Part shown: positions 1-28,971 of the stretch, one piece after another | Layout of the letters: every line of letters starts with the position of its first letter | Position numbering within the stretch: position 1 is the stretch's first letter | Assembly: GCA_902385255.1 (NCBI GenBank) | Contig: CABMEV010000001.1 | Location: 50,496-82,495 of the forward strand | Reading direction: 5' to 3' | Length of the DNA: 32,000 nt | Origin: Candidatus Tiddalikarchaeum anstoanum | GTDB lineage: Archaea > Nanobdellota > Nanobdellia > Tiddalikarchaeales > Tiddalikarchaeaceae | The notes under the pieces: model-generated | What the model was told of the DNA's origin: nothing | What the model saw: the letters and a program-made list of their open reading frames with translations, nothing else | Databases searched by the model: none | Translations under genes and position numbers: made by a program

Positions 1-344
1 TTGGAGATTCCGAGTATTATCTCGTTATTTTTCATGAGCGCTATTTATGTTGCGAATAAAGGGAGATTTCTCATATAATTCTTTGTTCCGTCAACGGGGT
101 CAATAATCCATTTATACTCAGATTCGGATTTAGTTCTTCCTAATTCTTCTCATATGAATCCGTGTTCCGGGAAAGTTTTCTTTATAGTTTCTATTAATAT
201 TTTTTCAGCTTCTATTTCAGCAAGGGTTACCGGCGACTTGTCTTCTTTTAAATCAGCGCTAGTTTTGCCATAATACTTCATGATTAATTTTTCTGCCTTT
301 TTGACTGCGAGGAGTCCGACTTTCAAGAATTCGCTTTTTGGCAT
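1..344 (-). pseudogene. Inositol monophosphatase/FBPase (SuhB-like) family gene, 5' part (runs off window start), interrupted by in-frame TGA (150..152) and TAA (45..47)
   Basis: One reverse-strand frame reads ...TFPEHGFI*EELGRTKSESEYKWIIDPVDGTKNYMRNLPLFAT*IALMKNNEIILGIS. This contains the IMPase WxxDPxDGTxN metal-binding motif and the FAxSIAL segment. The two stops sit where family members usually have G/S and S. Confidence 0.7.
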
Positions 345-390
345 AAAACTATCTGATAATTAAATAGAATAAAAACTTTTAGCTTTATTT

Positions 391-1035
391 TTATATGAAT
401 TTAAAATCAAAATATTTTAGTTCATTTTCGTCGTTCTTGTATTTCTTGCTTAGTTCCAAGGCTGAAGATAGTAATATTTTCTCTCCTTCGGTTAATATCT
501 TATCATGTTCAATAATCCATCCTTTGAAGAATGATTCGAACAGGAAAGACTGTATATTCTCAATTAGTGTTGTGTCGCCGTAGTAATCCTTAAGCACGAT
601 ATGTGTGTTTTTCATGAGTGTGTAAGCATCTCTGAATGAAACTGGTGCGTATTTAGAATACTCCCAGTCAATAACTCTTATTTCAGTTAAGTCTTGGTTT
701 AATATTATGTTGCTTGCTTCGAAATCATTATGTTGTACTCCTATCTTGTTAAAGAAACAGCAGACGGAGCCTATTTTTTCATATATGTTTAATAAATTTT
801 TTACGTCTTTGGGTTCGAATTCGTCATATTTTAGAAGAGACATTATTTCACTATTATGTTCAAGTATCTTGTTTAGTCTGTATCCATTAATATGTTCGGT
901 GTATACTTTGCCTTGCCTGAACGTTAATATCCTAGGTATAACTCTTTTTTCGCTTAAGTAAGCTAAGTGGGGTATCTTGTTCTCGTTTTCAATTTTCAAA
1001 TAAGGAACTATTAACTCCTCTAATATTCCATCCAT
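391..1035 (-). CDS. Choline/ethanolamine-kinase-like phosphotransferase (APH/ChoK fold)
   Basis: 214-aa ORF with VQHNDFEASNIIL...VIDWEYS, matching the HNDxxxxN catalytic loop plus IDWEY motif of the LicA/choline kinase/APH family. Confidence 0.6.
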   Translation of the reverse strand: MDGILEELIVPYLKIENENKIPHLAYLSEKRVIPRILTFRQGKVYTEHINGYRLNKILEHNSEIMSLLKYDEFEPKDVKNLLNIYEKIGSVCCFFNKIGVQHNDFEASNIILNQDLTEIRVIDWEYSKYAPVSFRDAYTLMKNTHIVLKDYYGDTTLIENIQSFLFESFFKGWIIEHDKILTEGEKILLSSALELSKKYKNDENELKYFDFKFI

Positions 1036-1135
1036 AATTTCCCTATTTTAATTGGATTAACGCCCTTATAAAACTTATTAATTAGTTAGACTAAATAGGA
1101 ATTTTTTTAAGTAAAAAAACTTTGAGTTCATTGAT

Positions 1136-1489
1136 GTGATGAATACTCCAAGAAATAGTATAAATCTTAATTATAGGAGTTCTTATAGTCTTATCCTAAC
1201 TGATGAATGCATTTCAGATTTGTTATGCGAATATTTGAAAGAGACTTTGCCAAAATATTTTAATAAGAATTTTACACTGTTAAGTGTTAAGAATAATCCT
1301 TTGATGAAAGGGCTGGTTGACAAGGACTTGGCTGATTTCTGCTATGATTATAACGGTGTGTTAATAACTGCCGATAAAGGTTTTTTTAACAAATATCTAG
1401 GTTATAAAATATTTTATTACGATGGATTATCATGGCGAAAGATAGTGCAAAAAACAGTCAAATATTTAACAATTAATTCTTTAAATTAA
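1136..1489 (+). CDS. Hypothetical protein, possibly a PIN-like DUF5615/Mut7-C-type domain
   Basis: 117-aa ORF. The pattern LILTDECIS...G..DKDL...GVLITADKGF resembles the small PIN-like family (DE..., then xLxTxDkdF). No partner antitoxin ORF is visible. Confidence 0.35.
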   Translation: MMNTPRNSINLNYRSSYSLILTDECISDLLCEYLKETLPKYFNKNFTLLSVKNNPLMKGLVDKDLADFCYDYNGVLITADKGFFNKYLGYKIFYYDGLSWRKIVQKTVKYLTINSLN

Positions 1490-1511
1490 AATCTTAAAAA
1501 AAGTTATCAAA

Positions 1512-1799
1512 TTATGCAGTTCTCTTTATCACGTGGTATCCGAACTGGGTTTTTACTGGCGCCTGAGTTATCTCCCCATTTTTCAGCTTTAACACTGCAG
1601 CTTCAAACTCTGGAACCATGTCGCCGTCATTGAAAACTCCCAAGTCACCGCCCTTCGCTTTGCTTGGGCAGATGGAATATTTCTGGGCAAGAAGTTCGAA
1701 CGCGTTAGGCTCTGTTGGGTGCTTCTTTAAATAATCAATTATAGCCTTAGCTGTCGCTTCATCCTTAACAAGTATATGGCTTGCTTTCATAATAGTCAT
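1512..1799 (-). CDS. Parvulin-type peptidyl-prolyl cis-trans isomerase
   Basis: 95 aa: ASHILVKDE...[20 protein letters not shown]...[13 protein letters not shown], a typical PpiC/parvulin single domain. Confidence 0.85.
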
Positions 1800-1899
1800 A
1801 ATGAAAGAAAAATAAATCCGTAAATGTTTAAAAAATTATAGATTAGCTAGAAAACTTTATAACCAGCATATTCTAGATAATATTTCATGGACGAAACCT

Positions 1900-2691
1900 G
1901 TGGTCGCATTCCTATCCGACAATAAATCTTATTTAACTGACTTGTTAGACAATTATTCTGGTAAAAAATTCATTATCAAAATAGGAACGGAATCAGTGAA
2001 TAACATTAATATAGCCCGTTTATGCGACGTTACCAAATACGTAAACGAGAGAGGCGGAAGAACAATCATAGTCACATCAGGAGCAAAAGCAGCAGGTGAA
2101 ACAAGCCTAATCAAGCACGGAATAGATATAGAAAAAGAGGCATCTGAAGAGATAATACGAAAACAATTATGCTGCGCAGTAGGCCAGCCTTCGCTAATCT
2201 CAAAATACTCAGTAATGCTTGAAGAGTTCGGATACGTAGTAAGCCAGTATCTTCTCCCAAGCAACTTATCATACCTGCCTGCATTAAAGTTTAACCTGAA
2301 ATTTAAGAATATAATACCTGTCCTTAATTTTAACGACCCGTTGGAGAACTTGGAATTAGAAAATGTGAAATTACTCTCGGACAATGACCGGCTGGCAGCG
2401 ACTGTAGGCGCAGTAATTAATTGCGACTTGTTAATATTACTCACGAGTGTTGGAGGACTGTTCGAACATTACAATGAAAAAAATCAAACCCTTGTGAACA
2501 TGATTCATTACATGGATGCTAAACTCTTAGTTACAGACAGTAAGACTAATAACGGCACAGGCGGAATGGCGTCGAAAATAGAAGCATGCGAGATATTCAA
2601 AAAAGACGTGCTCATAACAAGCCCTGAAAACTTATTAGACGTGTTAAAATTTAACAGCGACAAGTACACCATACTAAGATATAAGAAATGA
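1900..2691 (+). CDS. proB: Glutamate 5-kinase-like amino-acid kinase (no PUA domain)
   Basis: FIIKIGTESV, IIVTSGAKAAG, AVGQPSLI, LNFND...SDNDRLAATV...DLLILLTSVGGLF and GTGGMASKIEA match ProB motifs. GTG start; no proA adjacent. Confidence 0.7.
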   Translation: MVAFLSDNKSYLTDLLDNYSGKKFIIKIGTESVNNINIARLCDVTKYVNERGGRTIIVTSGAKAAGETSLIKHGIDIEKEASEEIIRKQLCCAVGQPSLISKYSVMLEEFGYVVSQYLLPSNLSYLPALKFNLKFKNIIPVLNFNDPLENLELENVKLLSDNDRLAATVGAVINCDLLILLTSVGGLFEHYNEKNQTLVNMIHYMDAKLLVTDSKTNNGTGGMASKIEACEIFKKDVLITSPENLLDVLKFNSDKYTILRYKK

Positions 2692-2749
2692 ATAATAAAA
2701 AAAATATTAATAAAAAATTTTCTTATTAGATAAGAACTAATTTCAGACT

Positions 2750-3094
2750 TTATTCTTCTGAGTCTTCACTGTCTTCTTCTAAATCTTCTGATTCTTCACT
2801 TTCGAACTCGTCTTCTTTAGGTTTCTCTTTCTTCTCTGTTTTTTCGAATGATTTTTTAGGTGCGAAAGATTCTCTTGGTCCTGATCCTGAACTGCCTTTG
2901 TTCTTTAAATAACATTCTTTACAGTAAACAGGTGCTCCTTCTCTAGGTTTGAAAGGTACTTCTGCATCTTTTCCGCAAGCTGTACATTTTACTTTGTGCA
3001 TTTCTCTTGGTCCGCCGAAGCTTCTTCTACCGCCAAAGCCGCCGCTTCTACCGCCGCCGCCAAAACTCTTTCGTTCTCTTCCTTCGTAAGGCAT
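2750..3094 (-). CDS. CxxC-x17-CxxC zinc-ribbon protein with RGG-rich N-terminus and acidic C-terminal tail
   Basis: KCTACGKDAEVPFKPREGAPVYCKECY core, flanked by GGGGRSGGFGGRR and EDEFESEESEDLEEDSEDSEE. Confidence 0.7.
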   Translation of the reverse strand: MPYEGRERKSFGGGGRSGGFGGRRSFGGPREMHKVKCTACGKDAEVPFKPREGAPVYCKECYLKNKGSSGSGPRESFAPKKSFEKTEKKEKPKEDEFESEESEDLEEDSEDSEE

Positions 3095-3199
3095 AACTAA
3101 ACTTTAACCCCCTTTAAATAAAAAGATACTATCAAGTCATTTATAAAACCTGCTATTCAATAATATTAATAAATATACAACGCCTTAAAACGCATAATT

Positions 3200-4474
3200 A
3201 TGAGATATGAAGACTTCATAAACTTAAAATACACCCCTAAAAGTGACGATTTAATCTGTTTATTCAGAATAACACCAACTAATGAGTTTACCTTGAAAGA
3301 AGCAGCGATACGCGTCGCCGCAGAATCAAGCAATGGCACATGGAGCGACTTGAAAGTCCCGGAGCATATTTACGAATTAAGCGCTAAAGCTTATGAAATC
3401 AAAAAAGACTTTGTCAAAATCGCATACCCAGTAGACTTGTTCGAACAAGGAAACATGCCGCAGATTTTGTCATCAATAGCCGGAAACATATTCGGAATGA
3501 AAGCAGTATCAGGCCTCAGGCTTGAAGATGTGAAATTCCCGGAGAAAATTATAAGGAGTTTTAAAGGACCGCAGTACGGCATCGACGGAGTACGTAAAAT
3601 ATTAAAAATAAAAAACAGGCCTATAACTATTACTGTTCCAAAACCAAAAGTAGGATATTATCCTGAAGAGCATGCCAAGATAGCATATGAAGCGTGGACT
3701 GGAGGAGTAGACTTGCTAAAAGATGACGAGAACTTGTCAGACCAGTCATTCAACAGGTTTGAGAAAAGACTAAAACTTTGCATGAAGATGAGGGAAAAAG
3801 CCGAGAAGGAAACGGGCGAAAAAAAAAGCTATCTGATTAATATCACTTCCGAAACTAATGAGATGATAAGGCGCGCCAAAATGGTCAAAGATTATGGCAA
3901 CGAGTATATAATGATAGATACTTTAACTGCAGGCTGGGCAGCAACCCAGACAGTAAGGGACGCTTGCCAGGATTTAAAACTAGCCATGCACGGCCACAGA
4001 GCATTTCATTCAGCATTTGACAGGAACCCTCTTCATGGTTTAAGCATGAAAGTGGTAACCAGCGTTGCAAGGATGCAGGGAATAGACCAGCTGCATATTG
4101 GAGGAATGGGAAAACTTGCAGGCGATGAGGAAGAGGTTGAATCAAATTTTGAAAAGTGCTAATTAGATTCGAACGCTGAAAATGAAACAATGCTGCCGCA
4201 GGAATGGTTCGGCAAGAAGAAGATGCTAAGCATATGCTCAGGAGGGCTTCATGTCGGAATATTAAAACCAGTATTCGACCTCCTTGGAACTAATATTGGA
4301 GTTCAGATAGGAGGAGGCATACACAGCCACCCTGATGGGACTCACGCAGGAGCAATGGCAGTCAGGCAAGCAATCGATGCTTACATGAAAGATATTGCTA
4401 TAGAAGAATACGCGGAGAAGAATAAGGAGCTCAAAAGAGCATTAGACAAGTGGGGAACAAAAGTATACGAATAA
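3200..4474 (+). CDS. rbcL: Form III-type RuBisCO large subunit, interrupted by one in-frame TAA at 4160..4162 (ORF segments 3200..4162 and 4190..4474, same frame)
   Basis: N-terminal YxxFxxLxYxPxxxDLI, PKPKVG (KPK), LLKDDENL, HGHRAFH, GMGKLAGD. After the stop: SGGLHVG and GGGIHSHPDG. Codons 4163..4189 (LDSNAENET) are open in the same frame. Confidence 0.85.
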
Positions 4475-4479
4475 AATTT

Positions 4480-5142
4480 TTAGATGTATTTTAATACATC
4501 ACTTATCTTATTCAATTCATAATCCGCTTTTTCTTTACCTTTTATGAACTGCCCATACTTTGCAAGGGCAGTTTTCATTCCTATCTTTTTCCCGCCCTTA
4601 ATATCCCTGTTTGGATTATCGCCAACGAATAATATTTCACAAGGTTTGATATGCAGTGTATTAACAACTTTCTTGAAAGGAATAAGATTAGGCTTCCTGT
4701 GGCGCGTATCTTCGAAAGTGATTACGCAGTCGAAATAGTCAACTATTCCAAGATTAGTCAGCCTCACCCAAGCCTTCACTTTAGGAGTATCAGTTAACAC
4801 TCCGAGCTTTATGCCTTTTTTCTTAAGCGCTTTCAAAGTCTTAACGACTCCATTGTAAGGCTTTACGACAAAATACCTTATCTGCCTATACGCTACGATT
4901 GCAGCGCCGAGTATCTTATAATCAACTACGCCGTTTACGTGTTTTAAGAACGCCTGAAAAATAGTCTTGCTCTCGTAAAAACTTTTCCTATAAATCTTCA
5001 TCAGAATGTCATAAGCATCCTCGCTGTCCATCTCTAAACCTGCCTTAATCATAGCTTTAATAGCTGCATTTACGCAAGCAGTTTTTATCTTAACATAATC
5101 AGTCAAAGTATTGTCTATATCAAAAAGGACAGCGCGTATCAT
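4480..5142 (-). CDS. HAD-superfamily hydrolase (subfamily IA-like phosphatase)
   Basis: MIRAVLFDIDNTLTDY (DxDxT), GVLTDTPK, VGDNPNRDIKGGKKIGMKT. Start placed at the Met just before the DxD motif. Confidence 0.8.
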   Translation of the reverse strand: MIRAVLFDIDNTLTDYVKIKTACVNAAIKAMIKAGLEMDSEDAYDILMKIYRKSFYESKTIFQAFLKHVNGVVDYKILGAAIVAYRQIRYFVVKPYNGVVKTLKALKKKGIKLGVLTDTPKVKAWVRLTNLGIVDYFDCVITFEDTRHRKPNLIPFKKVVNTLHIKPCEILFVGDNPNRDIKGGKKIGMKTALAKYGQFIKGKEKADYELNKISDVLKYI

Positions 5143-5179
5143 ACTATTTATTAAAATACAAATTAACATTAAGAATATT

Positions 5180-5773
5180 ATGATTAATCCAAAAAGGTTC
5201 GAGCAGATAAAGAACCAATTAGAAAAGAAGTATCCTTTGTTTGAATTTTTAGGAACGGGAATGCGAAGCGAGGTTTACAGATTAAACAAAAATCTTGTTG
5301 TTAAGATTGAACGTGACGATACTGATTCAAAAGACAGGATTAAAAACGAATACGACACCCTGAACATTTTAAAGAAGTATAAGTATTTTCCGAAACCATT
5401 TGACTATAATCCGAAGCTCAAGTATTTGATAAGAGATTACGTGGGCGGCGATTTGATAAAGGATGTCTTTGATAAAGAGATTTTCATAAACTGCTTAAAA
5501 TTGTGCAGGTGCCTTGACACTGAAGGGATTAACCAGTCCGAATTAAACAATCCTTACAAGCACATATTTATTGCAAAAGATAAGATTATGATGATAGATT
5601 TCGAGAGGGCAAGAAAGATGAAGAACCCGCATAACGTTTCACAATTCATAGCTTACATAATGAAAAAATACAGAATAAAGGATGACATCCTGATAAACTT
5701 GGTTAAGGAGTATAAGAAAAAATATGATGAGGCTAGTTTTAAGCGCATACTAGAACGAATTACTTCTTTTTAA
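5180..5773 (+). CDS. Small RIO/Bud32-like putative Ser/Thr protein kinase (archaeal COG2112-type)
   Basis: LGTGMRSEVYRL..VVKIER, GINQSELNNPYKHIFI, MMIDFERAR. Start placed at MINPKRF rather than the longer ORF start that overlaps the divergent HAD gene. Confidence 0.6.
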   Translation: MINPKRFEQIKNQLEKKYPLFEFLGTGMRSEVYRLNKNLVVKIERDDTDSKDRIKNEYDTLNILKKYKYFPKPFDYNPKLKYLIRDYVGGDLIKDVFDKEIFINCLKLCRCLDTEGINQSELNNPYKHIFIAKDKIMMIDFERARKMKNPHNVSQFIAYIMKKYRIKDDILINLVKEYKKKYDEASFKRILERITSF

Positions 5774-6023
5774 TTTCATCATTATTCTTGATACGTATAC
5801 CATACATTGAGAAGTACGCATATCCTGCGATTAATCCTGCAATGTAAGCTATTAAGGCTTCAAGTATTATCCAGAACAGGAATATGTACTTGTAAGTAAT
5901 AACGCTTAAAGAGCCGGCGAATAATGACAAGAAAACCAGTATTACTGATATGAACCCGACTAGTTCCGCCTTTATGTTAACATTCTTATTTATCCAATTT
6001 ACTATTTTTTTCCCAAAAACCAT
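5760..6023 (-). CDS. Small membrane protein (2-3 predicted TM helices)
   Basis: 87-aa ORF dominated by hydrophobic stretches; no recognisable family. Confidence 0.45.
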   Translation of the reverse strand: MVFGKKIVNWINKNVNIKAELVGFISVILVFLSLFAGSLSVITYKYIFLFWIILEALIAYIAGLIAGYAYFSMYGIRIKNNDEIKKK

Positions 6024-6094
6024 AAAAAGTACTAGATGCCTGTTATTTATAAAAATTGAGTAGGTTTAAAAATAATCATACTTTTCTTTAAATT

Positions 6095-7093
6095 GTGGAA
6101 AATAAAAAAACAGTGTTCTCGATATTCACTCTAATTCTGGGTATACTGCTTTTTATAATAACAGGCAGGTTCATCATCATAATACTGACTAGTATTTTCA
6201 TAAGTTTCCTAATCAGGCCGTTGTATAAATTAGTCAAAAAAGCAATCAAAAACAGCACCATAAGCGCAGTAGTGTCCGAACTATTAACACTATCCTTAAT
6301 ATTTTACATAACCTTCTTCGTATTCAACAGTGTATATTATCAGATAAAACTCCTTGGTTCATCATTCATAACTGAGACATTATTCAACGTTAACGAGTCA
6401 TTGTTTAATAACTCTGCAAATCTGGATTTTAACAACTTATTAACACTTGAAACTTTTAACAACTCGCTTAGTTTCCTGCAAAGTGTAATAACCAATACGC
6501 CACTCCTCATACTTGACATCTTCCTAATCATCTTCCTGTCTTATTATTTCATAAAAGACTCTGAATTAATCCAGGATACTATTCTTAACATGATTCCAGC
6601 CAGGCATAAAGAGCCGATAATACGATTTTTAAAAAGGTCAAAGAGCATCAGTGAAGAAATACTTTACAGTTACTTCCTAACTGCATTATTCGTCGGATTA
6701 TTATTGTTCATACTGTTAAACATGCTGAACGTTCATTTCTCGCTTGACTATGCAATCTTTGCAGCTATCGCTTCGTTGTTCCCGATTATAGGCACGTGGA
6801 TAGTGCCTGTCTTTTTGGCAATTTATTTCTTTTTCAGAAGCAATTACTTTGTCGGAGTTATATTATTGATTTACGCAGTCCTCATAGTGTACATAACTAA
6901 TGTTTTCAGGTTTATTATTAAACGAACGCATGAAAAAGTCCACCCTTTGCTTTTCATAATGGGTGTATTCGTCGGATTTTATTCGCTGGGCTTTCTCGGA
7001 TTCCTGACTGGCCCTATAATTTTTGGAATACTGCAAATAGGATTTGAAGAAGTTTTCAGGGAATACCTTAAAAATGCCAAGAAAAAGCCTTAG
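6095..7093 (+). CDS. AI-2E family (PerM/UPF0118) transporter-like membrane protein
   Basis: 332 aa, multi-TM, with a C-terminal G-rich helix region FIMGVFVGFYSLGFLGFLTGPIIFGIL typical of the family. GTG start, TAG stop. Confidence 0.55.
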   Translation: MENKKTVFSIFTLILGILLFIITGRFIIIILTSIFISFLIRPLYKLVKKAIKNSTISAVVSELLTLSLIFYITFFVFNSVYYQIKLLGSSFITETLFNVNESLFNNSANLDFNNLLTLETFNNSLSFLQSVITNTPLLILDIFLIIFLSYYFIKDSELIQDTILNMIPARHKEPIIRFLKRSKSISEEILYSYFLTALFVGLLLFILLNMLNVHFSLDYAIFAAIASLFPIIGTWIVPVFLAIYFFFRSNYFVGVILLIYAVLIVYITNVFRFIIKRTHEKVHPLLFIMGVFVGFYSLGFLGFLTGPIIFGILQIGFEEVFREYLKNAKKKP

Positions 7094-7135
7094 AAAGGTT
7101 TAAATAAGAGGTCATACATATCTATTCTTTTTATT

Positions 7136-7303
7136 ATGAAGTGCGATATTTGCAAGAAAGGTAAAAGAAAAGTTTACAAGTGCAAGGAATGCAACCAGTT
7201 ATTTTGTGACGAGTGCGGGGACGCTAAACAACCAATGTGCGAGTTCTGTATAAAGTTCCAGGAAAATCAAAAATATACGGAAGAAATACCTCAACAAGAA
7301 TAA
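7136..7303 (+). CDS. 55-aa four-CxxC zinc-finger protein (below ORF-track cut-off)
   Basis: ATG 7136; translation MKCDICKKGKRKVYKCKECNQLFCDECGDAKQPMCEFCIKFQENQKYTEEIPQQE; TAA at 7301..7303. Eight Cys in four CxxC pairs. Confidence 0.55.
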   Translation: MKCDICKKGKRKVYKCKECNQLFCDECGDAKQPMCEFCIKFQENQKYTEEIPQQE

Positions 7304-7336
7304 AATATATAAAAGACGCATATGTATTAAATTCTT

Positions 7337-7576
7337 ATGACTAGTGGACCTACTTCAAAAGGATGGATTGTTAGATTAATTCTTGGTTTGATTATTTTTA
7401 CACTCATAGTAAGTGTTAAAATGATAATAATGGCTAATTTGGAGAGATTAGGATTTTCTTTCTTTGACGCAAATGCCATTAGAACAACTTGGAACAGCTT
7501 CAGCTTAGAGTTAGTATTCTATCTGATCGCAATGCTTATAAGTATGATTTCAGCGTTGTTAATAAACATTAAGTGA
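7337..7576 (+). CDS. Small membrane protein
   Basis: 79-aa ORF with two hydrophobic helices. Confidence 0.45.
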   Translation: MTSGPTSKGWIVRLILGLIIFTLIVSVKMIIMANLERLGFSFFDANAIRTTWNSFSLELVFYLIAMLISMISALLINIK

Positions 7577-7589
7577 ATGTTTTAATAAA

Positions 7590-7769
7590 ATGAAGAATAT
7601 CCTTGTATTAATCGGGGCTGTAATATTCATAGGCCAGGTGATGGTATGGTTTGTACTATCTTCGCTGCCTATAGTCAGAACACTGCCCTTAATCGTATTC
7701 GCACCATTAACGGGGTTGTCACTATTATTCTTTATTAGTGCTTCAACTCCACCCAATCTTAACAGATAA
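7590..7769 (+). CDS. 59-aa membrane peptide (alternative to antisense ORF 7559..7786)
   Basis: MKNILVLIGAVIFIGQVMVWFVLSSLPIVRTLPLIVFAPLTGLSLLFFISASTPPNLNR. Two clean TM helices, same strand as the preceding membrane ORF. The antisense 75-aa ORF starts at TTG and looks non-protein-like. Confidence 0.35.
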   Translation: MKNILVLIGAVIFIGQVMVWFVLSSLPIVRTLPLIVFAPLTGLSLLFFISASTPPNLNR

Positions 7770-10027: not shown

Positions 10028-10144
10028 GGGCGGGTAGCTCAGTCTGGTGGAGCGCTAGTCTTATAAGACTTGCACTAGTACAAAAAGTTTTTGGCTCAAG
10101 TCTGAGTCAACTAGTGGCCGGGAGTTCAAATCTCCCCCTGCCCA
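10028..10144 (+). tRNA. tRNA-Ile (anticodon UAU, 10062..10064) with a 43-nt intron at the canonical 37/38 position (about 10066..10108)
   Basis: Acceptor GGGCGGG/CCTGCCC, D arm GCTC-AGTCTGGTG-GAGC, anticodon stem CTAGT/ACTAG with loop CTTATA|A, T arm GGGAG-TTCAAAT-CTCCC. Intron has internal helix AGACTTG/CAAGTCT. No encoded CCA. Confidence 0.8.
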
Positions 10145-12402: not shown

Positions 12403-13320
12403 ATGAAAGTGCTCGAAGTGAACCATTTCAAAAATATGATTAACGAGACGGTTAAAGTCATCGAGGACAAGAAGGACTACTTAAATTATATAAATGTATA
12501 CCCAGTCAGGGACGGCGACACCGGAAACAATTTATTATCCACATTTAAGAATACAAGATTGTTGAATGAGAAGGCAAACGTCAAGGATTTCCTGATAGAC
12601 CTGAAAAAATTAGTATTAACCGGAGCCAGGGGAAACAGCGGAGTAATAATCTCACAATTCTACAAAGGATTCTGCAACCACCTCATTGGGTCCAAGAATA
12701 TTGGCACTTTCGAATTCGCAAAAGCAATAGAGAACGGCTACTACCAAGCGTACAACTCCGTAAGTAAACCTGCCGAAGGCACAATGCTCAGCGTGTTAAA
12801 AGGAGCAAGCATAGGTGCTATCAAAGTATTAAAGAAAAGCGAATCAGTAATAGATGTATTGGAGAGCTCATTCAAATCAGCGCAAAAATACTTAAAAAAA
12901 ACTGTGAAACAGATTCCCATACTTAACAAGTCAGGTGTTGTAGATGCAGGCGGCTTGGGTGTTGTCTACATGCTCGGCGCATGGATGCGGGCAATAGGAG
13001 TACTGCCCAAATATGACCCTTCAATTAACAACTTGATATTAAAAGAGCCGCTTAGCAGCGGGATCAAAAATAAGTACTGCATATCAGTCTTAATTAAAGA
13101 CTGCAAGCATGAAAAAGAGCTGAAAGACCTTCTTAACTCACTTGGTGACTCATTGGACATAGGGGGAGACATTAATGCAGTCAAAGTTCATATTCACGCC
13201 AATGATTACGAAAACGTTAAGGCTGTATGTTCAGCATTTGGTGAATTATCAAGTTTCGAATATGACAATATGATGGAGCAAAATGAGAAAATTAGAGAAT
13301 ATAAAAATAATAACGGATGA
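12403..13320 (+). CDS. fakA: Fatty-acid kinase FakA-like protein (Dak2/DhaL kinase domain plus central domain; lacks the usual C-terminal domain)
   Basis: INVYPVRDGDTGNNL, GARGNSGVIISQFYKGFC, KPAEGTMLSV, GVVDAGGLGV and GDSLDIGG..VKVHIHA...YDNMMEQNEK line up with staphylococcal FakA residues ~1-330 as I recall that sequence. Confidence 0.8.
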   Translation: MKVLEVNHFKNMINETVKVIEDKKDYLNYINVYPVRDGDTGNNLLSTFKNTRLLNEKANVKDFLIDLKKLVLTGARGNSGVIISQFYKGFCNHLIGSKNIGTFEFAKAIENGYYQAYNSVSKPAEGTMLSVLKGASIGAIKVLKKSESVIDVLESSFKSAQKYLKKTVKQIPILNKSGVVDAGGLGVVYMLGAWMRAIGVLPKYDPSINNLILKEPLSSGIKNKYCISVLIKDCKHEKELKDLLNSLGDSLDIGGDINAVKVHIHANDYENVKAVCSAFGELSSFEYDNMMEQNEKIREYKNNNG

Positions 13321-14104
13321 GACTATTGATTTTTATCCAAGCTTTAATGAAAAAGAAATAGTCGTAATCAAAAACCACTTATTCCTGAACGGCAAAGAAG
13401 TTAGCCTGACAAAAAAAGAATTCTACGAGAAGATAACCGACAAGAAAAATCATTTCACAACAAGCCAGGCAAACCCTGAAGATTTTCTTGAAGTATTCAA
13501 AAAATATTCGGATTATAAAATTATAGTGATAACTGCGACTTCCAAGATGAGCGGCATAAACAACAGCGCAAACATTGCAAAAAAAGAAATGCCAAATAAT
13601 GATATTGCAGTAATAGACTCGGAGTCGTTAAGTGCAGGCCTCTCAATACTGGCAGATTTAGGATTACACCTAATCAAAGAAGGAGAAAGTTATGATAATA
13701 TTGTTAAAAAACTTGAAAACTTAAAACATAAGATAAAACTATTCTTCTTATTGACAAACCTTGACTACCTCGTGTCAAGCGGCAGGGTGAATAAAATAAT
13801 CGGATTCCTTGGAAAAGTAGTCAATATGAAACCCTTATTGGAGATTAAGGAAGGTGTGTTAACCAGCGCAGGAGCAATGATATTATCAAAAGATATGGTT
13901 AACTCTTTTTATGAATTCCTTGAAAATAAAATAAGAAATACGCATAAGATATTTATCATACACAACAACTTGGATGCTGAAATGAGGGCGCTGAAAAGTA
14001 AACTGGGACGAGGATATGACATTGAAATCATAAACTTCTTAAACACGCTTCTTGGCGTTTACAGCGGACCTGAATGCTTGGCAGTAGGATGGGTTGAAGA
14101 ATGA
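13283..14104 (+). CDS. fakB: DegV-family fatty-acid-binding protein (FakB-like)
   Basis: IKIITDETIDF, TTSQANPEDF, ATSKMSGINNSANIA, VIDSESLSAGL, LDYLVSSGRV, KPLLEI, GVYSGPECLAVGW. GGAG lies 5 nt before the ATG. Overlaps fakA by 38 nt. Confidence 0.88.
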   Translation: MRKLENIKIITDETIDFYPSFNEKEIVVIKNHLFLNGKEVSLTKKEFYEKITDKKNHFTTSQANPEDFLEVFKKYSDYKIIVITATSKMSGINNSANIAKKEMPNNDIAVIDSESLSAGLSILADLGLHLIKEGESYDNIVKKLENLKHKIKLFFLLTNLDYLVSSGRVNKIIGFLGKVVNMKPLLEIKEGVLTSAGAMILSKDMVNSFYEFLENKIRNTHKIFIIHNNLDAEMRALKSKLGRGYDIEIINFLNTLLGVYSGPECLAVGWVEE

Positions 14105-14697
14105 CATACGGCATTTTCTTGTCATGCATAATCAGCTACATTTTAGGCAGTTACCCGACTGCTTATTTCATAATCAGGATGTTTGAAAGAAAAAACATAT
14201 TCGAATCAGGTGATAAGAATATGGGCGGAACCAATGGATTAATAATATCCAAATCATATAAAATATTTTTCCTGATAGGACTAGTTGATATCTTAAAATC
14301 TTTTTTCGCAGCAGTAACATCTTACTACATAATTAAAGATTTCTGGCTGGCAGCTTTATTATCCGGGATATTCAGCACTCTTGGCCATAACTACAGCGTA
14401 TTTAAAAATTTCAAGGGAGGAAAAGGTGCGAGCACTAATGCAGGAACATTCTTTTTCATAAATCCATCAATGATGGTTTTATTCCTGCTAAGCATAATGG
14501 TGTTATCATTAAGCAATAAAAAATTAAATTTTACGAATAATGAATTCGTCGAGTCAATATACAGGATGATATTATTTTTAACGCTAACATCACTATTTTT
14601 TCCAGACTTCTTCATTCACGCATTAGTGCTGCAATCATTGTCTGTTTTAAAATACGCAACTGAAGGACAGTTTAGCAAAAAAATTCTAGAGTTTTAG
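14101..14697 (+). CDS. plsY: Acyl-phosphate:glycerol-3-phosphate acyltransferase PlsY
   Basis: YILGSYPTAY, GDKNMGGTN (aligns without gaps to GSGNLGATN), DILKS, LGHNYSVFKNFKGGKGASTNAG. ATGA start/stop overlap with fakB. Confidence 0.85.
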   Translation: MTYGIFLSCIISYILGSYPTAYFIIRMFERKNIFESGDKNMGGTNGLIISKSYKIFFLIGLVDILKSFFAAVTSYYIIKDFWLAALLSGIFSTLGHNYSVFKNFKGGKGASTNAGTFFFINPSMMVLFLLSIMVLSLSNKKLNFTNNEFVESIYRMILFLTLTSLFFPDFFIHALVLQSLSVLKYATEGQFSKKILEF

Positions 14698-18734: not shown

Positions 18735-18739
18735 ATCTA

Positions 18740-18873: not shown

Positions 18874-18957
18874 GCGGGGTTGCCGGAGTGGTCAAACGGG
18901 CATGGCTAAGGACCATGTGGCTTAGTGCCTACGCGAGTTCGAGTCTCGTATCCCGCA
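18874..18957 (+). tRNA. tRNA-Leu, anticodon AAG (long variable arm)
   Basis: Acceptor GCGGGGT/ATCCCGC, anticodon arm CATGG-CTAAGGA-CCATG (U33, AAG, G37), 15-nt variable arm TGGCTTAGTGCCTAC, T arm GCGAG-TTCGAGT-CTCGT. Confidence 0.75.
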
Positions 18958-19185
18958 CTAATTCAAAATTTTTAGTTTTTTAAGCTCCGTTTGCAGTTTA
19001 TACTCATTAAACCAAATTATTCCTGCAACAAGTAATAACAGGAATAGTCCGAATCTAGGCACGAATAGGAGCGCCCATGAGAATATGGAATAATACCTTA
19101 ATTGTTTAATCTTCTTTTTGACTTCTAATACTTTTTCGTGCATGTTAAACAAACAGGGTATAAACTCCTTATTAAACCTTTCCAA
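18958..19185 (-). CDS. Hypothetical small membrane protein (start uncertain: TTG at 19185 or ATG at 19143)
   Basis: 75-aa ORF with one long hydrophobic segment SIFSWALLFVPRFGLFLLLLVAGIIW. Confidence 0.35.
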   Translation of the reverse strand: MERFNKEFIPCLFNMHEKVLEVKKKIKQLRYYSIFSWALLFVPRFGLFLLLLVAGIIWFNEYKLQTELKKLKILN

Positions 19186-20686: not shown

Positions 20687-21238
20687 TTAAAATTCAACTT
20701 TTGGAGTTTTCTTCTCGGTTTCTGAAACTTGGAATAATTCCCTTGCTTTTAAGCTCATCATGCCTGCAACTATATTGTCAGGGAATTGAGCTATCTTAAT
20801 GTTGAATGTGTTTACGCTGTCGTTGTAAGTTTCTCTTCTTCCTGCAATGTCAGTTTCCAGTGTTGAAATTCTTCCTTGCAACTGCATGAAGTTATCATTA
20901 GCTTTAAGTGTAGGATAGTTCTCTGCAACCGCAAACATAGTCTTTAATGCACCATTAAGCATTCCTTCAGCGTGCGCTTTTTCAGGGATTGATTTTGCTT
21001 TGCTCCAAGCGCTCCTAGCTTCAGTTATTGCGGTCAATGTGTCTTTCTCGTGCTTCATGTATCCTTTGACAGTGTTTACAAGGTTTGGTATCTCATCAAA
21101 ACGCTGCTTAAGCAGGACATTTATATTGCTCCAAGTCTTGTCTATCTCGTTTCTTAATGTTACAAAATTATTGTAAATTGAAACGAAATATAATGCTATT
21201 CCAAGTAGGATTACTACAGGTATTACGATTTCTAACAT
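20687..21238 (-). CDS. lemA: LemA family protein
   Basis: N-terminal TM helix, then YNNFVTLRNEIDKTWSNINVLLKQRFDEIPNLVNTVKGYMKHEKDTL, the LemA signature region. Confidence 0.85.
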   Translation of the reverse strand: MLEIVIPVVILLGIALYFVSIYNNFVTLRNEIDKTWSNINVLLKQRFDEIPNLVNTVKGYMKHEKDTLTAITEARSAWSKAKSIPEKAHAEGMLNGALKTMFAVAENYPTLKANDNFMQLQGRISTLETDIAGRRETYNDSVNTFNIKIAQFPDNIVAGMMSLKARELFQVSETEKKTPKVEF

Positions 21239-21325
21239 GGTTTAATCAAAAGGCTGTAATAATTAAAAAGATTTACTTTAAGCAGTTTAAGAAAGTTTTA
21301 AAAGAAATATTGGTTAATACTTTTT

Positions 21326-22627
21326 ATGAACCGCGTTTTAATAAAAGACTTGAAAACAGGCGAGAAGCAGGTAATTTATGGCTTCGTTCAGGAAGTAAGG
21401 GAGCTTAGCAGCATCATTTTCTTGGTTATCCGCGACGTCAGCGGAATACTACAAACTGTTGTTAAAAAAGATAATAAGATTTTATTCGACTTGGCTAAAA
21501 AAATAAATAAAGAATCAGTAGTCTCAGTTTCAGGCATCGTTAATGCAAGCAAACAAGCACCTGGCGGGAAAGAATTAGTCATTGAAAATTTGGAAATAAT
21601 AAGCAGGGCTGAAACACCATTACCTATCCCTGTTATTGAAAAAGGTGAAGTAACGACTGCACTCGATAAAAGATTTGACTGGAGATTCCTGGATTTAAGA
21701 AAAGAAAAGAATACTCTGATGTTCAAAGTGTCTACTGCTGTTGAAAAAGGAATGAGGAATTATTGGAACACGAACGGTTACATAGAGATTCATACGCCTA
21801 AGATTATAGGAACAGCATCCGAATCAGGCGCTGAAGTTTTCATGCTGCCTTACTTTGGAAGGGAAGCATTCTTGGCGCAGAGTCCGCAGTTTTACAAGCA
21901 GGAAGCGATGGCTGCAGGTTTTGAAAAAGTCTTTGAAATAGGCACAGTGTTTAGAGCTGAGAATAGCCACACGACCAGGCACTTAACAGAGATTGTAATG
22001 ATTGACATGGAAATCTCATATATTAAGGACCATTTCAGCGTAATGGATGAAGAAGAAGCCATGCTGAAACACATGCTTAAAATAGTCAAGGAAGAATATG
22101 GCAGCGAGATAAAAAGAGTCTTTAACATCGATATTAACATCCCTGCCAAGTTTCCAAGAATCAGCTTCGCTGAAGCCAACGAGATTATAAAGAAGATGAA
22201 AGGCGAAGTTGAAGAGAATGACTTAACAAGCGCTGGTGAAAAGATGCTTGGAGAGTGGGCTAAAAAAGAACATGGCAGCGACTTCTTATTCGTGTACAAT
22301 TATCCTTGGGCTAAAAAACCATTCTATCACATGAAGGATGATAAGACACCTAACACTACAAAGAGCTTCGACCTGTTATATAAAGGATTAGAAATAACAT
22401 CAGGCTCGCAGAGGGAACACAAGTATGAAATATTAATCAAGCAAGTTAAGGAGAAAAAACTAAGCGAAGAGCCGCTTAAGGATTACTTAAACGCTTTCAG
22501 GTATGGAATTCCGCCTCATGGAGGTTTGGGTATAGGTCATGCCAGAGTCGTCCAGCAAATGCTCGGATTGGAGAACGTGAGAGAAGCAACATACATACCA
22601 AGAGACACGGAAAGAATAACACCTTAA
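21326..22627 (+). CDS. aspS: Aspartyl-tRNA synthetase (archaeal class IIb)
   Basis: N-terminal OB fold, LAQSPQFYKQ, FRAENSHTTRHLTEIVMIDME, GGLGIGHARVV..LGLENVREATYIPRDTERITP. 433 aa, the expected length. Confidence 0.88.
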   Translation: MNRVLIKDLKTGEKQVIYGFVQEVRELSSIIFLVIRDVSGILQTVVKKDNKILFDLAKKINKESVVSVSGIVNASKQAPGGKELVIENLEIISRAETPLPIPVIEKGEVTTALDKRFDWRFLDLRKEKNTLMFKVSTAVEKGMRNYWNTNGYIEIHTPKIIGTASESGAEVFMLPYFGREAFLAQSPQFYKQEAMAAGFEKVFEIGTVFRAENSHTTRHLTEIVMIDMEISYIKDHFSVMDEEEAMLKHMLKIVKEEYGSEIKRVFNIDINIPAKFPRISFAEANEIIKKMKGEVEENDLTSAGEKMLGEWAKKEHGSDFLFVYNYPWAKKPFYHMKDDKTPNTTKSFDLLYKGLEITSGSQREHKYEILIKQVKEKKLSEEPLKDYLNAFRYGIPPHGGLGIGHARVVQQMLGLENVREATYIPRDTERITP

Positions 22628-22669
22628 AAAATAACATTTTTAAATACGTTTTTTTTGTTTATTTAACTG

Positions 22670-23296
22670 ATGAACACGGACCAGGTATTGTTCTACAAAT
22701 GTTTAGGGACGTTGGATAAAAATTTAGGTGACCATATTCATTATTGTATAGAGTGGAATAAGGTTACTGAAAAACTGATTGATTGTGTAAACAATCTTCT
22801 TCCGGAAACTGTCCAGTACTTATTTGAAACTGTTGAACAAAAATACAAAGAAAACAAATTTGAAGTTACATCTGCGGATTTTGAAGTGTGCTACAAAAAC
22901 CTCGAAAAAATATTAACGCTAACAATGCCGGTGCTAAAAAGAAAAATATACGAACAGTTTAACAATAGGGCGAAATATATGAATTTTATGGATGATTTTG
23001 TCACTAAGGTGGACATAACTCCAAAACAAGTGGTTGATATTTGTAATATTTTAACCAGGAATGAAACGAGATGTTATGTATCAATATTATCTTATTATAT
23101 TAAAAATAGAAGTGACGCGAAAGCGTTTAATATTATTAGCAAGAAATTTGAAAACAAGCCTATAAAAACAGTAATGGCAGATATAGCAGACACTCTCGAT
23201 GATAATACTAGGTTCTTCTCTCCTACAACAGTGGAATCTTATTATATTCAGGCGTTGATGGATAATCTTATAGCGAATCCTATTTTTAAACGATAA
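22670..23296 (+). CDS. Hypothetical protein
   Basis: 208-aa ORF, no recognisable motif. Confidence 0.45.
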   Translation: MNTDQVLFYKCLGTLDKNLGDHIHYCIEWNKVTEKLIDCVNNLLPETVQYLFETVEQKYKENKFEVTSADFEVCYKNLEKILTLTMPVLKRKIYEQFNNRAKYMNFMDDFVTKVDITPKQVVDICNILTRNETRCYVSILSYYIKNRSDAKAFNIISKKFENKPIKTVMADIADTLDDNTRFFSPTTVESYYIQALMDNLIANPIFKR

Positions 23297-23395
23297 TTAT
23301 TTTTTTTCAAAACGTTTATAAATAAAAAAGATACAATAAATGCTTAGTAAATCTATGTGTAAGCTCATCCACGCGTATGTTGGGCTTACGAAATA

Positions 23396-23403
23396 TTTAT
23401 AAA
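23396..23403 (+). promoter_or_regulatory. Candidate TATA box for the 16S rRNA transcript (second TTTATAAATA at 23315..23324)
   Basis: TTTATAAA lies ~70 nt upstream of the processing-stem arm and ~190 nt upstream of mature 16S. A leader hairpin sits at 23435..23459. Confidence 0.35.
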
Positions 23404-23470
23404 CGATTCAAGTACTTTTTTAGTATTACGTGAGTATCATAAAAGCGATTTTTATGATATGAATATTCAT

Positions 23471-23491
23471 AGTGGTTGATTGTGTCGCAAG
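23471..23491 (+). other. Pre-16S processing stem, 5' arm (pairs with 25155..25176)
   Basis: AGTGGTTGAT-TGTGT-CGCAAG is complementary to CTTGCG-TACAAC-ATCAACCACT downstream of the 16S (10 bp + internal loop + 6 bp). Confidence 0.6.
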
Positions 23492-23592
23492 AGAAAAATT
23501 CGGTTTTTTCCGCGAACAGCAATAAAAAACAATTCCTAAATAGTTTAATAAACCAAAAAACCCAGAGGGATCAAAAAAAAATTATGGAAGCA

Positions 23593-25060
<1,468 letters not shown>

Positions 25061-25154
25061 TTTATTTTCTTTTTCTCGAGAATTTTTCGAGAAACTGGGA
25101 AAAAGAAATATATACCTTATTTATTTAGATGTGTGTGTAGAAGTGGAAAAAACA

Positions 25155-25176
25155 CTTGCGTACAACATCAACCACT
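25155..25176 (+). other. Pre-16S processing stem, 3' arm
   Basis: Complementary to 23471..23491 (see that feature). Confidence 0.6.
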
Positions 25177-25250
25177 TACTTTTTTATTTTTACAAAACCT
25201 AGCGAGAGCTAGCAAAAACCTTATAAGCATCTTTTTTTAGTTCAATTATT

Positions 25251-26249
25251 ATGTTAAAATCACAGGAAGAATCCGCCTTAGAAAGAGTATTATATACTTT
25301 ATCTTTAGATAGTGATTTTAGTCAAGCTATACGTTCATCAAAAAGTACAGAGTATTTATCTGAAAATCCATATATACTACTTCATTCTATGCCTGCTTTT
25401 AGAGAATCATTTTTTAAAGTATTCCTTGACCAGCAGTACAGAATTTTTTCTAAAGGTGTAGATACAAATGAAGCAGATAAAGATAGAAATTACGCTTATC
25501 ATCTGCTTTCCAGGATTTCAAACATTGAAGAGTTAGCAAAGATGTTAAAATTAGAATTGCCTAAAGAGTATTTCGAAAAAAGAGCAATGTTTTGCAAAGA
25601 GACAAAAACATCAATGATAAGTTTACTGTTTAAAGAGTCAAACTTAGATACACCTAATTGTTCTTTTGGTTTTGAATCTCTTTTTAGCGGATTAAAAGCT
25701 ATTTTTGAAGCAGCAAACACTGCAATTCCTAATCTGGATGATGCACGAAAAGAGACATATAAATTACTTATTCCTAGATTAGAAGAATGTATTAGTACTA
25801 ACTTAGCCAGGAAAAACATGTTTCTTCAAGATATTATTGCATTTTCTTGGGAATTTACTTATTTAAATCATATGCTTAAATATATTGGCGCAAAGATTGA
25901 TGAAAAAGGTATGAAGTTAAGAAATGATGTGTTTATACAAGTAGCGGATGATTTAAAAATTAATCAATCAAAAATTGAGGATATTTATAGACTATCTGCC
26001 ATTTATAACTTATTTACTAAGCTTATTATACAATTAAAACCAGATTTTAATAATGCTGAATTAAAAAATGCATTTTCAAAACTAGTATCAGTTGAAAAAA
26101 ATGAAGTAACTTATGACTGCACATCTAAATTTTATCAAGATTTAGAGATTCTAGCTGAAAATAAGTTTAGTTTAGATACAAGTCTTGACGATGAAACTAA
26201 TGAACTTTTACTCGGCAAAGTAGACAATCTTAAATTTATAAAACAATAA
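25251..26249 (+). CDS. Hypothetical protein (AT-rich, probably helical)
   Basis: 332-aa ORF, no recognisable motif. My hand count of the first 100 nt gives 30 G+C. Confidence 0.5.
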   Translation: MLKSQEESALERVLYTLSLDSDFSQAIRSSKSTEYLSENPYILLHSMPAFRESFFKVFLDQQYRIFSKGVDTNEADKDRNYAYHLLSRISNIEELAKMLKLELPKEYFEKRAMFCKETKTSMISLLFKESNLDTPNCSFGFESLFSGLKAIFEAANTAIPNLDDARKETYKLLIPRLEECISTNLARKNMFLQDIIAFSWEFTYLNHMLKYIGAKIDEKGMKLRNDVFIQVADDLKINQSKIEDIYRLSAIYNLFTKLIIQLKPDFNNAELKNAFSKLVSVEKNEVTYDCTSKFYQDLEILAENKFSLDTSLDDETNELLLGKVDNLKFIKQ

Positions 26250-26300
26250 AAGTTCTAAATCATTATCCTTATAATAGCAAGGATTTCTTTAATTTATTTT

Positions 26301-26660
26301 ATGATATTTTATATTCACAAGCCTATTCAGCTGCGTGTATACGCAAGCAGAAAAAATATTAATAATTATTTTAAGTATAATGTCAGGGAGTTGGAGCGTG
26401 AAGTGCTGGTTCCAAGATGCATTGAGGAAGAATTAATACCCTATAATGACAAAAAAGTCTTAGTGAATGTTATGGGTTTAAACGAAAGAAATATTGAATT
26501 CCTGCTTATTTACGGATACGTATCAAAAGAACGCGTCTTTAGAACTAATGAAGGAGTGGCATTATTTGCCAAAGAGATACCAAAATCAGATATTGAAGGT
26601 GTTAAAAAAGCAGTGCTAAATTATTACAATTTTGAGAAACCTCTATCTTTCATAGACTAG
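26301..26660 (+). CDS. Hypothetical protein
   Basis: 119-aa ORF, no recognisable motif. Confidence 0.4.
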   Translation: MIFYIHKPIQLRVYASRKNINNYFKYNVRELEREVLVPRCIEEELIPYNDKKVLVNVMGLNERNIEFLLIYGYVSKERVFRTNEGVALFAKEIPKSDIEGVKKAVLNYYNFEKPLSFID

Positions 26661-26701
26661 AAAACCTTTTTTAATAATTAATAAGTTAAGTATTCTTTAA
26701 T

Positions 26702-27028
26702 TTGAAAGCGGAAATTGCGTCAAAACCTGAACCTGAAGAGATAATAGTGGATGCTGCAAAGCATAAGAGTCCTTCAAAAAGCGAAGTGAAATCCGACACG
26801 TTCACCCATAATAGAGATAAGGTTATTTCCTTTCTAAGGATTTTACTGCTCACAATGCTGTTTATAGTTGTTATTTTCTCATTGTTAATAACTAAGATGT
26901 TATTCTCGCCTAATCCTAATCCATGGGTACTCTTTGGCATGATAGCAGTAATGGTATTGCCAACAATATTCGTAATGGCCTTCCTGTTCAGGTTTTTAGT
27001 GAATTATATGGGCATGAAGAAGGATTAA
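26702..27028 (+). CDS. Hypothetical membrane protein (2 TM), TTG start
   Basis: 108-aa ORF with a charged N-terminus and two hydrophobic helices. Confidence 0.4.
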   Translation: MKAEIASKPEPEEIIVDAAKHKSPSKSEVKSDTFTHNRDKVISFLRILLLTMLFIVVIFSLLITKMLFSPNPNPWVLFGMIAVMVLPTIFVMAFLFRFLVNYMGMKKD

Positions 27029-27681
27029 AGAGGAATGGAAATTAGAACTTTTTTTTAGCAGAGCAGCAACACATTTTTTTTGAACTAAGTTTGAGTAGTT
27101 CTTTGTTTATCGCGTAGTTGCGAATCTTTTTCGCTGGATGCTTTTTTAAGCTCTTTTTCTCCATTCCTCCTTAACTCTTTTTTTTGGGTCCATGTAATTA
27201 AAAAATAAAAAATTAAAAAATGTTAAATTTTTTTAGTTGAGTTGAAAAATAAAATAAGTGCAATTTTAGCATAGTTAGTTTTTCGTTTTAGTACAGAGCA
27301 AGACAGTAATTAAGCAAGTGTCGCTTTTGACTTGGGTCCCAAACAATTTCAGGGGACTGGTCGTTTTCGATTACATTTTTTTTCTTGGATTTACTAATCT
27401 AAACTAGTCATGCTGTTCTTTAATTGCAAATATTTTATTTTTTTAAAACAACCCTCGAGAAATTCTTAGAAATTTTGTGCTTTCATCGGGTTAGTATCTT
27501 GAAAAACATGATGTTATGGCGCCTGCTACTTTAATGAGCCATACACATACGTGATTCAAGTTATTAACCACAACTTAAAAGTTAAACGCTAGTTATATAA
27601 AAAACCTTCGAAGTAATATATCGAGTCACTAAATAGTTATTAAAAATGTTTATATACGTTAATCCTTTTTGCATCTAAAAT

Positions 27682-28971
27682 ATGCACCTCGAAAACTTGC
27701 TGAAGAAGGTTACTACGAAAAAGTTAATCTCATTTTATAATATTGTTGAGAAATTAAAAACTACTATGAGGTATGATAACCAGGAGGGTATTGCTGACTC
27801 TGTTGCTGACCATTCTTTCAGGCTGGGTGTCATGGCATACTTAGTTGCCGAGCATTATAACCTTGATATTGACAAGACTAAAGCGGTTGATTTGGCTTTA
27901 ATTCATGATATGGGCGAGTACTTGCATGGTGATGTGGACCAGAGAAAGATAAGGGAGGGAGTGGTTTCGAAGGATGATAAGGAGAAGCTTGAAGAGGAAG
28001 GTTTAAATGAGTTAAAAAAAGCTCTTCCAAGGACTATGCGTAATTATCTGTCGAATTTATGGGAAGAATATAATTCTTTGTCAACTCCTGAGTCAAAGTA
28101 TATTAAGGCGTTGGATAAGTTGGAGAGTATGCTTCGCATATCCAACAAGGGGTATAAAGTGTTTATGCCTTCATTCACTGGCGAGAATGATGGCGCCCAA
28201 GCGAAGCTGATAAATTACGCGGATAATGCTGTCCGCTCATATCCACCTCTTGCCTGTTTGAATTCTATTGTTAAGAATAGGATTAAGTCAGAGTTTGACA
28301 AAGTGGGTTTTTCGTGGCCTAGTTCCTGCAATGAATTCCTGGATTCCGGATGCTCTGATGATTTGGTGCAGATTGTTTCCTTCCTTGATACTATTGAGAA
28401 TTTAAAGTGCGAGCTTAGGTATGGCAAGGTTAAGACTAGTATGAGCGAGTCTGTTGCCGGCCACATGTTCAAGCTTGCAGTTATGACTTTCAGTTTCGCT
28501 AAGCAGTACGATTTGAAGCTTGATGTTTATCATGCGTTAAAGCTTGCTTTAGTTCATGACTTGGGTGAGTGTTTCGAGGGTGATATTCCTGCTGCTGACG
28601 TCCACTTGGGTGAGATTTCCAAGGAGGAGAAGTTCTCTATTGAAGAACGCGGTTTTAAAAAACTCTGAGGGTTATTGCCTGAGAATTTAGGCACTGATAT
28701 TTTAGATTTATGGAAGGAGTATGAGGTCGGGGCGACGATTGAGTCGCAGTACGTTAACGCATTGGATAAATTGGAGGCCCAGCTTCATGTCTGCAGCGTT
28801 GGGGAACATCGTTTATTGAAGAGTTACAGTCTAACTCCTGTTTATGCTGACAAGGCAGTTCTTAGGCTTAATATATTTAAGGATATGCTGCAGAGTATTA
28901 AGATTACTATGAGGGCGCAGTTTGAGAATGAAGGTTTAGAGTGGAAGAAGGATTATAACCTGTTTATGTAA
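27682..28971 (+). CDS. Tandem-duplicated YfbR-like HD-domain phosphohydrolase (5'-nucleotidase-like), interrupted by one in-frame TGA at 28666..28668 (ORF segments 27682..28668 and 28675..28971, same frame)
   Basis: Repeat 1: ADHSFRLGVMAYL...LIHDMGEYLHGDV...YIKALDKLES. Repeat 2: AGHMFKLAVMTF...LVHDLGECFEGDI...*...YVNALDKLEA. Confidence 0.75.

Follow-up and report, generated by a model that had tools for sequence, protein, structure and literature searches.

In-frame stop codons in three conserved enzyme genes

We analyzed a 32-kb stretch of archaeal DNA (hereafter the window) in which three conserved enzyme genes are interrupted by premature in-frame stop codons. The window belongs to 'Candidatus Tiddalikarchaeum anstoanum', whose LFW-252_1 metagenome-assembled genome (MAG; ERS2655302, CABMEV01, GCA_902385255) derives from trench water of an Australian radioactive legacy site; the organism has been described as host dependent, with heavily reduced biosynthesis (PMC8561730). 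The window has a GC content of ~35% and carries a 16S rRNA gene and four tRNA genes. The interrupted genes encode a phosphatase of the IMPase/FBPase family (two stops), the large subunit of a form III RuBisCO (one stop), and a tandem HD-domain hydrolase of the YfbR-like 5'-nucleotidase family (one stop). An original prediction, made from the letters and their open reading frames (ORFs), had reported four in-frame stops, intact motifs on both sides of them, and an absence of frameshifts. All four positions were re-confirmed, and the other two claims held as well. Pfam domains run across every stop, catalytic motifs are kept on either side, and the flanks of each stop share a single frame.

The RuBisCO gene extends from 3200 to 4474 on the forward strand and comprises 424 codons, including the stop. 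It matches the Pfam families RuBisCO_large_N and RuBisCO_large, the latter with an E value of 6.5e-82 over residues 127 to 418, which crosses a TAA at codon 321 (4160..4162, +). Ser occupies this column in 14 of 18 homologues. At the corresponding site the codons are TGC TCA TTA in the nearest relative and TGC TAA TTA in the window, so that a single C-to-A change separates the two, with identical flanking codons. The closest intact homologue is 72% identical. The invariant catalytic columns are all kept, both upstream and downstream of the stop. The ratio of C-terminal to N-terminal identity is 0.80, compared to 0.75 to 0.84 for intact homologues; conservation downstream of the stop is therefore normal.

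For the IMPase gene, the N-terminal 114 codons lie at 1..344 on the reverse strand, with the ATG at 344 and the 3' part beyond the start of the window. The match to PF00459 (Inositol_P; E=4e-25) covers residues 4 to 113 and crosses both stops. The remainder of the gene is P0373, an intact ORF of 149 codons (149 aa) on the same 88,051-bp contig, which ends as its homologues do, so the whole gene carries just two lesions. These are a TGA (150..152, −), at the residue directly before the metal-binding EE motif, and a TAA (45..47, −) within the motif 'LFAT*IALM', spaced 105 nt apart. Homologues from the PDB and from metagenomes were aligned. Among the 25 closest, the TGA column holds G in 19, A in 3, S in 2, and C in 1. 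The relatives' codons at this site are GGN, and one G-to-T change is sufficient to turn GGA into TGA. The TAA column is more variable (L in 12, Q and E in 5 each, F in 2, and V in 1). Codons were read at six loci of relatives, and four of these have CAA; CAA, GAA, and TTA are each one substitution away from TAA. The closest genomic relatives of this gene are MAGs of Patescibacteria, members of the candidate phyla radiation (CPR), with 55 to 62% identity, together with DPANN archaea (loci L004-L011). This kinship, as judged from sequence, suggests that ultra-small organisms have passed genes between domains.

The HD hydrolase gene (27682..28971, +) comprises 429 codons, including one stop, and encodes two domains that match the Pfam families HD_3, YfbR-like, and HD, with an E value of 1.3e-62. 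HD_3, at residues 238 to 373, crosses a TGA at codon 329 (28666..28668, +). This codon lies within the second HD domain, upstream of the last conserved metal-ligand motif, ALDKLE. Intact two-domain homologues of 413 to 428 aa are known, with 30 to 33% identity. The stop column varies among them (A/S/I/K/R) and points to no single ancestral codon. The TGA overlaps a GAGG-like motif, and a TTG (28675) follows 6 nt later (region 28666-28693); 8 nt separate the TGA from a downstream hairpin of 7 bp (z=-2.0). This stop is the sole one of the four with any signal nearby.

Taken together, Pfam matches and homologue alignments establish full-length homology to intact genes elsewhere for all three interrupted frames. 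No frameshift was found in the three enzymes or in any Pfam-annotated gene of the window, and the four stops are set against ~8,340 sense codons. The stops are part of the public record, since the fragments P0001, P0121, P0166, and P0373 were entered as separate predicted proteins of the deposited 88,051-bp contig. The article describing the organism makes no mention of pseudogenes or stop codons, and the terms 'pseudogene' and 'internal stop' were not found in its supplementary files (PMC8561730). Wherever the stop sites were read in relatives at 60 to 72% identity (RuBisCO and IMPase), these carry sense codons, and a single substitution accounts for each change: TCA to TAA in RuBisCO and, in IMPase, GGN to TGA and CAA, GAA, or TTA to TAA. 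The column in the HD gene varies, and its stop, too, lies one step from a plausible sense codon. Only accessory metabolic genes are affected; the remaining annotated genes, that of the aspartyl-tRNA synthetase (AspRS) included, are intact.

Two further parts of the window were considered as additional lesions and rejected. The FakA-like and DegV genes overlap in different frames, which could have hidden a frameshift, yet DegV alone matches its full-length model. The stretches 27029-27681 and 30823-32000 were considered as older pseudogenes; both are long and free of ORFs, with stops dense in all six frames, no RNA-family match, and nothing recognizable in them. These noncoding stretches have a GC content of ~0.29 and no Rfam match. 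Coding and RNA sequences together fill only ~85% of the window.

Terminators, genetic code, and decoding apparatus

To serve as controls, true terminators were located in conserved genes of the window. DegV/FakB ends with a TGA (14102..14104, +) that overlaps the ATG of PlsY (ATGA), and the DegV model is matched to position 279 of 280 at residue 272 of 273. The TAA of AspRS (22625..22627, +) follows a match of tRNA-synt_2 to position 307 of 308 at residue 427 of 433. PlsY ends with a TAG (14695..14697, +), its G3P_acyltransf model being matched to 157 of 164 at residue 185 of 198. Further examples are the TAA of LemA (model matched to 149 of 149), the TAG of a radical-SAM gene, and the TGA of an amino acid kinase. 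Over ~42 ORFs of the window, TAA is used 29 times, TGA 7 times, and TAG 6 times. Since TAA, TGA, and TAG each end conserved genes at normal, model-complete length, the standard code is read and genome-wide codon reassignment is excluded, as had already been thought likely from the first reading of the window. DegV and PlsY are part of a bacterial-type fatty acid/phospholipid cluster with overlapping frames (12403-14697, +), situated here in an archaeal genome and consisting of a FakA-like protein (Dak2 plus the middle domain, without the C-terminal domain), DegV/FakB, and PlsY.

More restricted forms of recoding were also considered. Reading TAA as Ser was suggested by the Ser column of RuBisCO, and distant IMPases of the PDB have Ser at their TAA site as well, but the 25 closest IMPases have L, Q, E, F, or V there. 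Because the two TAA sites align to differing residues (Ser versus Gln, Leu, or Glu), one recoded amino acid does not fit; together with the one-step origins of the stops, this is better explained by point substitution. The CPR relatives of IMPase raised the possibility of a relic from a donor using code 25 (TGA as Gly). It was rejected, as there is just one such TGA, the same gene also contains a TAA, and neighboring genes end with TGA. Selenocysteine (Sec) was rejected because the TGA columns are Gly (Cys in 1 of 25) or variable, and neither a selenocysteine insertion sequence (SECIS) nor any other RNA match from Rfam that would point to it was found in the window. Pyrrolysine (Pyl) requires an in-frame UAG, and no conserved gene of the window contains an in-frame TAG.

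Four tRNAs occur in the window: Glu-UUC, Leu-AAG, Ala-UGC, and an Ile-UAU that contains an intron. The original prediction had advised a search for suppressor-like tRNAs; within the window, none of the four is of this kind. The anticodon of the tRNA-Leu (18874-18958, +) is AAG, and such an A34 is uncommon among archaea. The stems of this tRNA look intact; its anticodon could be truly odd or could have arisen by a substitution. The tRNA-Ile (10028-10144, +) was recognized by its Rfam match and missed by ARAGORN. A 44-nt insert follows position 37, and its UAU anticodon implies that AUA would be decoded without agmatidine.

The 16S rRNA gene (23593..25060, +) has a variant decoding site. In the Rfam alignment, C1404U lies at 24934 and G1497A/U1498A/A1499C lie at 25017-25019. 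These changes replace universally conserved bases of helix 44, and G1497A compensates C1404U. The identical variant was found in 64 metagenome contigs of the Joint Genome Institute (JGI) (L015-L078) from groundwater, marine, and sediment samples. The 16S sequences of these contigs are 69 to 87% identical to that of the window, and many also diverge in the 1390-1400 region. As the variant is common to 64 distant contigs, it is not peculiar to this genome; from the sequences compared, diverse DPANN archaea appear to share it as a deep lineage trait. A scan for split ORFs made no nonsense-split conserved gene outside the rRNA evident on these contigs. A link between the stops and the 16S decoding site, which the original prediction had put forward as speculation, is thus not borne out. 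The variant was rejected as the cause of the stops, because it occurs clade-wide in distant DPANN lineages whose contigs show no evident split genes.

Origin of the interruptions

Three explanations had been listed beforehand for the stops: recent gene erosion, sequence artefacts, and context-dependent readthrough. The list is correct, and the weights were set anew here. We favor erosion, at what we judge to be even probability: the stops would be real, very recent loss-of-function point mutations in accessory enzymes. Artefact is possible but doubtful, and readthrough is improbable.

According to the reading as recent mutations, single-base nonsense substitutions would have arisen in the assembled genotype LFW-252_1 under the standard code. 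Their targets would be three nonessential enzymes of sugar-phosphate and nucleotide catabolism, i.e., the phosphatase of the IMPase/FBPase family, the form III RuBisCO that belongs to the adenosine monophosphate (AMP) salvage route, and the YfbR-like tandem HD nucleotidase. Termination would leave a 64-aa stub of IMPase, 320 aa of RuBisCO without the C-terminal phosphate-binding loops, and 328 aa of the HD protein, in which just the first HD domain is complete. The alleles would be real and either fixed or in the majority, and their products are presumably nonfunctional. In a host-dependent DPANN archaeon with a small population, gene erosion would here have reached the earliest stage at which it can be seen. 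An AT-biased mutation spectrum dominated by substitutions would account for nonsense lesions without insertions or deletions. In the codon usage of the window, 13.2% of G:C-to-T:A and 10.6% of A:T-to-T:A changes create a stop, 2 to 2.5 times the share of the average substitution (5.4%).

Several observations weigh against this reading. Apart from the stops, no decay is visible: frameshifts are lacking altogether, and conserved columns deviate no more than the background does. In RuBisCO, private deviations at columns otherwise invariant number 2, and the 18 aligned homologues have 0 to 3, except the two most divergent; the C-terminal part of IMPase has 3 at columns conserved to at least 85%, and most homologues have 0 to 6. 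Without damage from relaxed constraint, nonsense pseudogenes are compatible only with very recent events. IMPase would have acquired two nonsense lesions 105 nt apart and be otherwise undamaged. A ratio of four nonsense lesions to zero frameshifts is not usually seen in generic pseudogenization, and at three young pseudogenes in ~40 genes their density would be high by the standards of DPANN genomes. Finally, support for the alleles comes from the assembly of a MAG with a summed coverage of only ~11.5x.

The main competing explanation is an error of assembly or consensus, in which substitution errors or k-mers of minor variants entered a low-coverage assembly and the true genes are intact. The MAG was coassembled from four time points with MEGAHIT v1.0.2 and annotated with Prokka. 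Its Q2-Q3 coverage was 2.1, 1.8, 2.9, and 4.6x, or 11.5x when summed, and at this depth an artefact is a real possibility. Errors of Illumina sequencing and of de Bruijn assembly are overwhelmingly substitutions, which fits four nonsense codons and no frameshifts; the two IMPase stops lie within one read length, and the odd A34 anticodon of tRNA-Leu could be another substitution. The number of errors that this explanation demands is difficult to accommodate. As just 5.4% of random substitutions yield stops, ~70 errors would be needed in 27 kb of coding sequence (~0.3%), by our own estimate one to two orders of magnitude above the usual error of short-read assemblies. With an expectation of 0.1 to 0.5 nonsense errors, the probability of four or more is 4e-6 to 2e-3. 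RuBisCO and IMPase show private deviations at conserved columns only at the background level given above, and the compensated pair C1404U/G1497A of the 16S rRNA, with the variant recurring in 64 other contigs, indicates good sequence. Contigs of relatives, which were similarly assembled, are also free of such splits: none was evident in 198 kb by the same scan. Sequence from the same species was not found in the searched collections, where the closest entries are at 72% identity for RuBisCO and 86% for 16S. For three events distributed evenly across 230 kb, the chance of all falling within this 32 kb would be p ~0.003. As neither the loci of relatives nor the contigs with the 16S variant contain evident splits, the excess is specific to this genome and is not generic MAG noise. 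We consider artefact the less probable explanation on these grounds, though one to be taken seriously.

Two other explanations assume that the genes are functional. Under tolerated or programmed readthrough, a suppressor or near-cognate tRNA would decode UGA and UAA often enough to be of use, the enzymes would be made at full length, and their downstream parts would be under selection. The downstream parts are indeed as conserved as those of intact orthologues, the lesions are exclusively nonsense, with two of them in one otherwise perfect gene, all four sites lie at columns that vary among homologues, and the HD TGA is followed by the hairpin described above. However, the sole documented cases of recoding by readthrough in archaea are Sec (UGA) and Pyl (UAG) (PMC8211752), the window's tRNAs include no suppressor, and the sites have no leaky context in common. 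At +4 the sites carry G, A, T, and G, and z scores for folding of the downstream sequence were +0.9, -0.5, +1.2, and -2.0, three of the four being no better than shuffles. The TAA sites match differing residues, the four stops in ~8,340 codons spare every information-processing gene, and the 16S variant that might have been invoked is clade-wide, its other carrier contigs being without evident split genes. Readthrough in general is thus improbable, and the specific proposal that a DPANN archaeon tolerates sparse in-frame UGA and UAA by ribosomal readthrough, with all three enzymes at full length, is slightly more so. Alternatively, termination could be followed by reinitiation, yielding two polypeptides that form an active enzyme, as in the split genes of Nanoarchaeum. 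Possible restart codons are an ATG at 4190, 9 codons past the RuBisCO stop, and the TTG at 28675 after the HD stop, which is preceded by the GAGG-like motif overlapping the TGA; internal operon genes of the window do use Shine-Dalgarno motifs (e.g., GT4 and orf114). Against this, the RuBisCO ATG is the conserved Met of 'MLxQxW' and lacks a Shine-Dalgarno motif, the breaks are inside domains and not at their borders, and IMPase would fall into pieces of 64, 34, and 149 aa, the middle one of which lacks a start codon. No homologue is split, and a Shine-Dalgarno-like motif with a TTG occurs at the HD site only. Functional split genes are accordingly the explanation to which we attach the least credence.

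The consequences differ between the explanations. If the alleles are real, gene loss in a DPANN archaeon would have been caught at its very first step, including loss of the form III RuBisCO/AMP salvage route, which is often used when the metabolism of DPANN archaea is inferred. Metabolic reconstructions of this type genome would then be listing genes as present that are broken. Should the stops be artefacts, caution is advised regarding type material that is based on an 11.5x MAG. Only readthrough, unlikely as it is, would alter our knowledge of archaeal translation; it would be the first case in Archaea other than Sec and Pyl and the first with UAA.

Comparison with known systems

Variant codes in which UGA is sense, namely, code 25 (UGA as Gly; Gracilibacteria and Absconditabacteria) and code 4 (UGA as Trp), share with the window one TGA at a conserved Gly column, in a gene with CPR relatives. 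They differ in that TGA terminates genes here, only two in-frame TGA codons occur in ~8,340 codons, and TAA is in frame as well. We know of no prokaryotic code in which TAA is a sense codon. Archaeal recoding by Sec (UGA) or Pyl (UAG) likewise places an in-frame stop inside an otherwise intact enzyme gene. In the window, however, the TGA columns are Gly or variable and not a catalytic Cys, in-frame TAG is lacking, and TAA is involved. Other archaeal lineages are known to use Sec and Pyl. No machinery for either comes up in the window or in the published account of this organism (PMC8561730).

The context-dependent codes of Condylostoma and Blastocrithidia resemble the window in that all three stops still terminate genes and some stops are in frame. 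In-frame stops are many per gene in these organisms, whereas the 32-kb window has four, all of them within three genes.

Young nonsense pseudogenes of host-restricted bacteria and symbionts differ from the present case in several respects: here, frameshifts, insertion sequence (IS) elements, and deletions are lacking, the density is high (3 of ~40 genes), two stops fall in a single gene that is otherwise without decay, and the genome is an 11.5x MAG. What the two have in common are single-base stops in accessory genes, a small, AT-rich genome of a host-dependent organism, intact flanks, and the standard genetic code.

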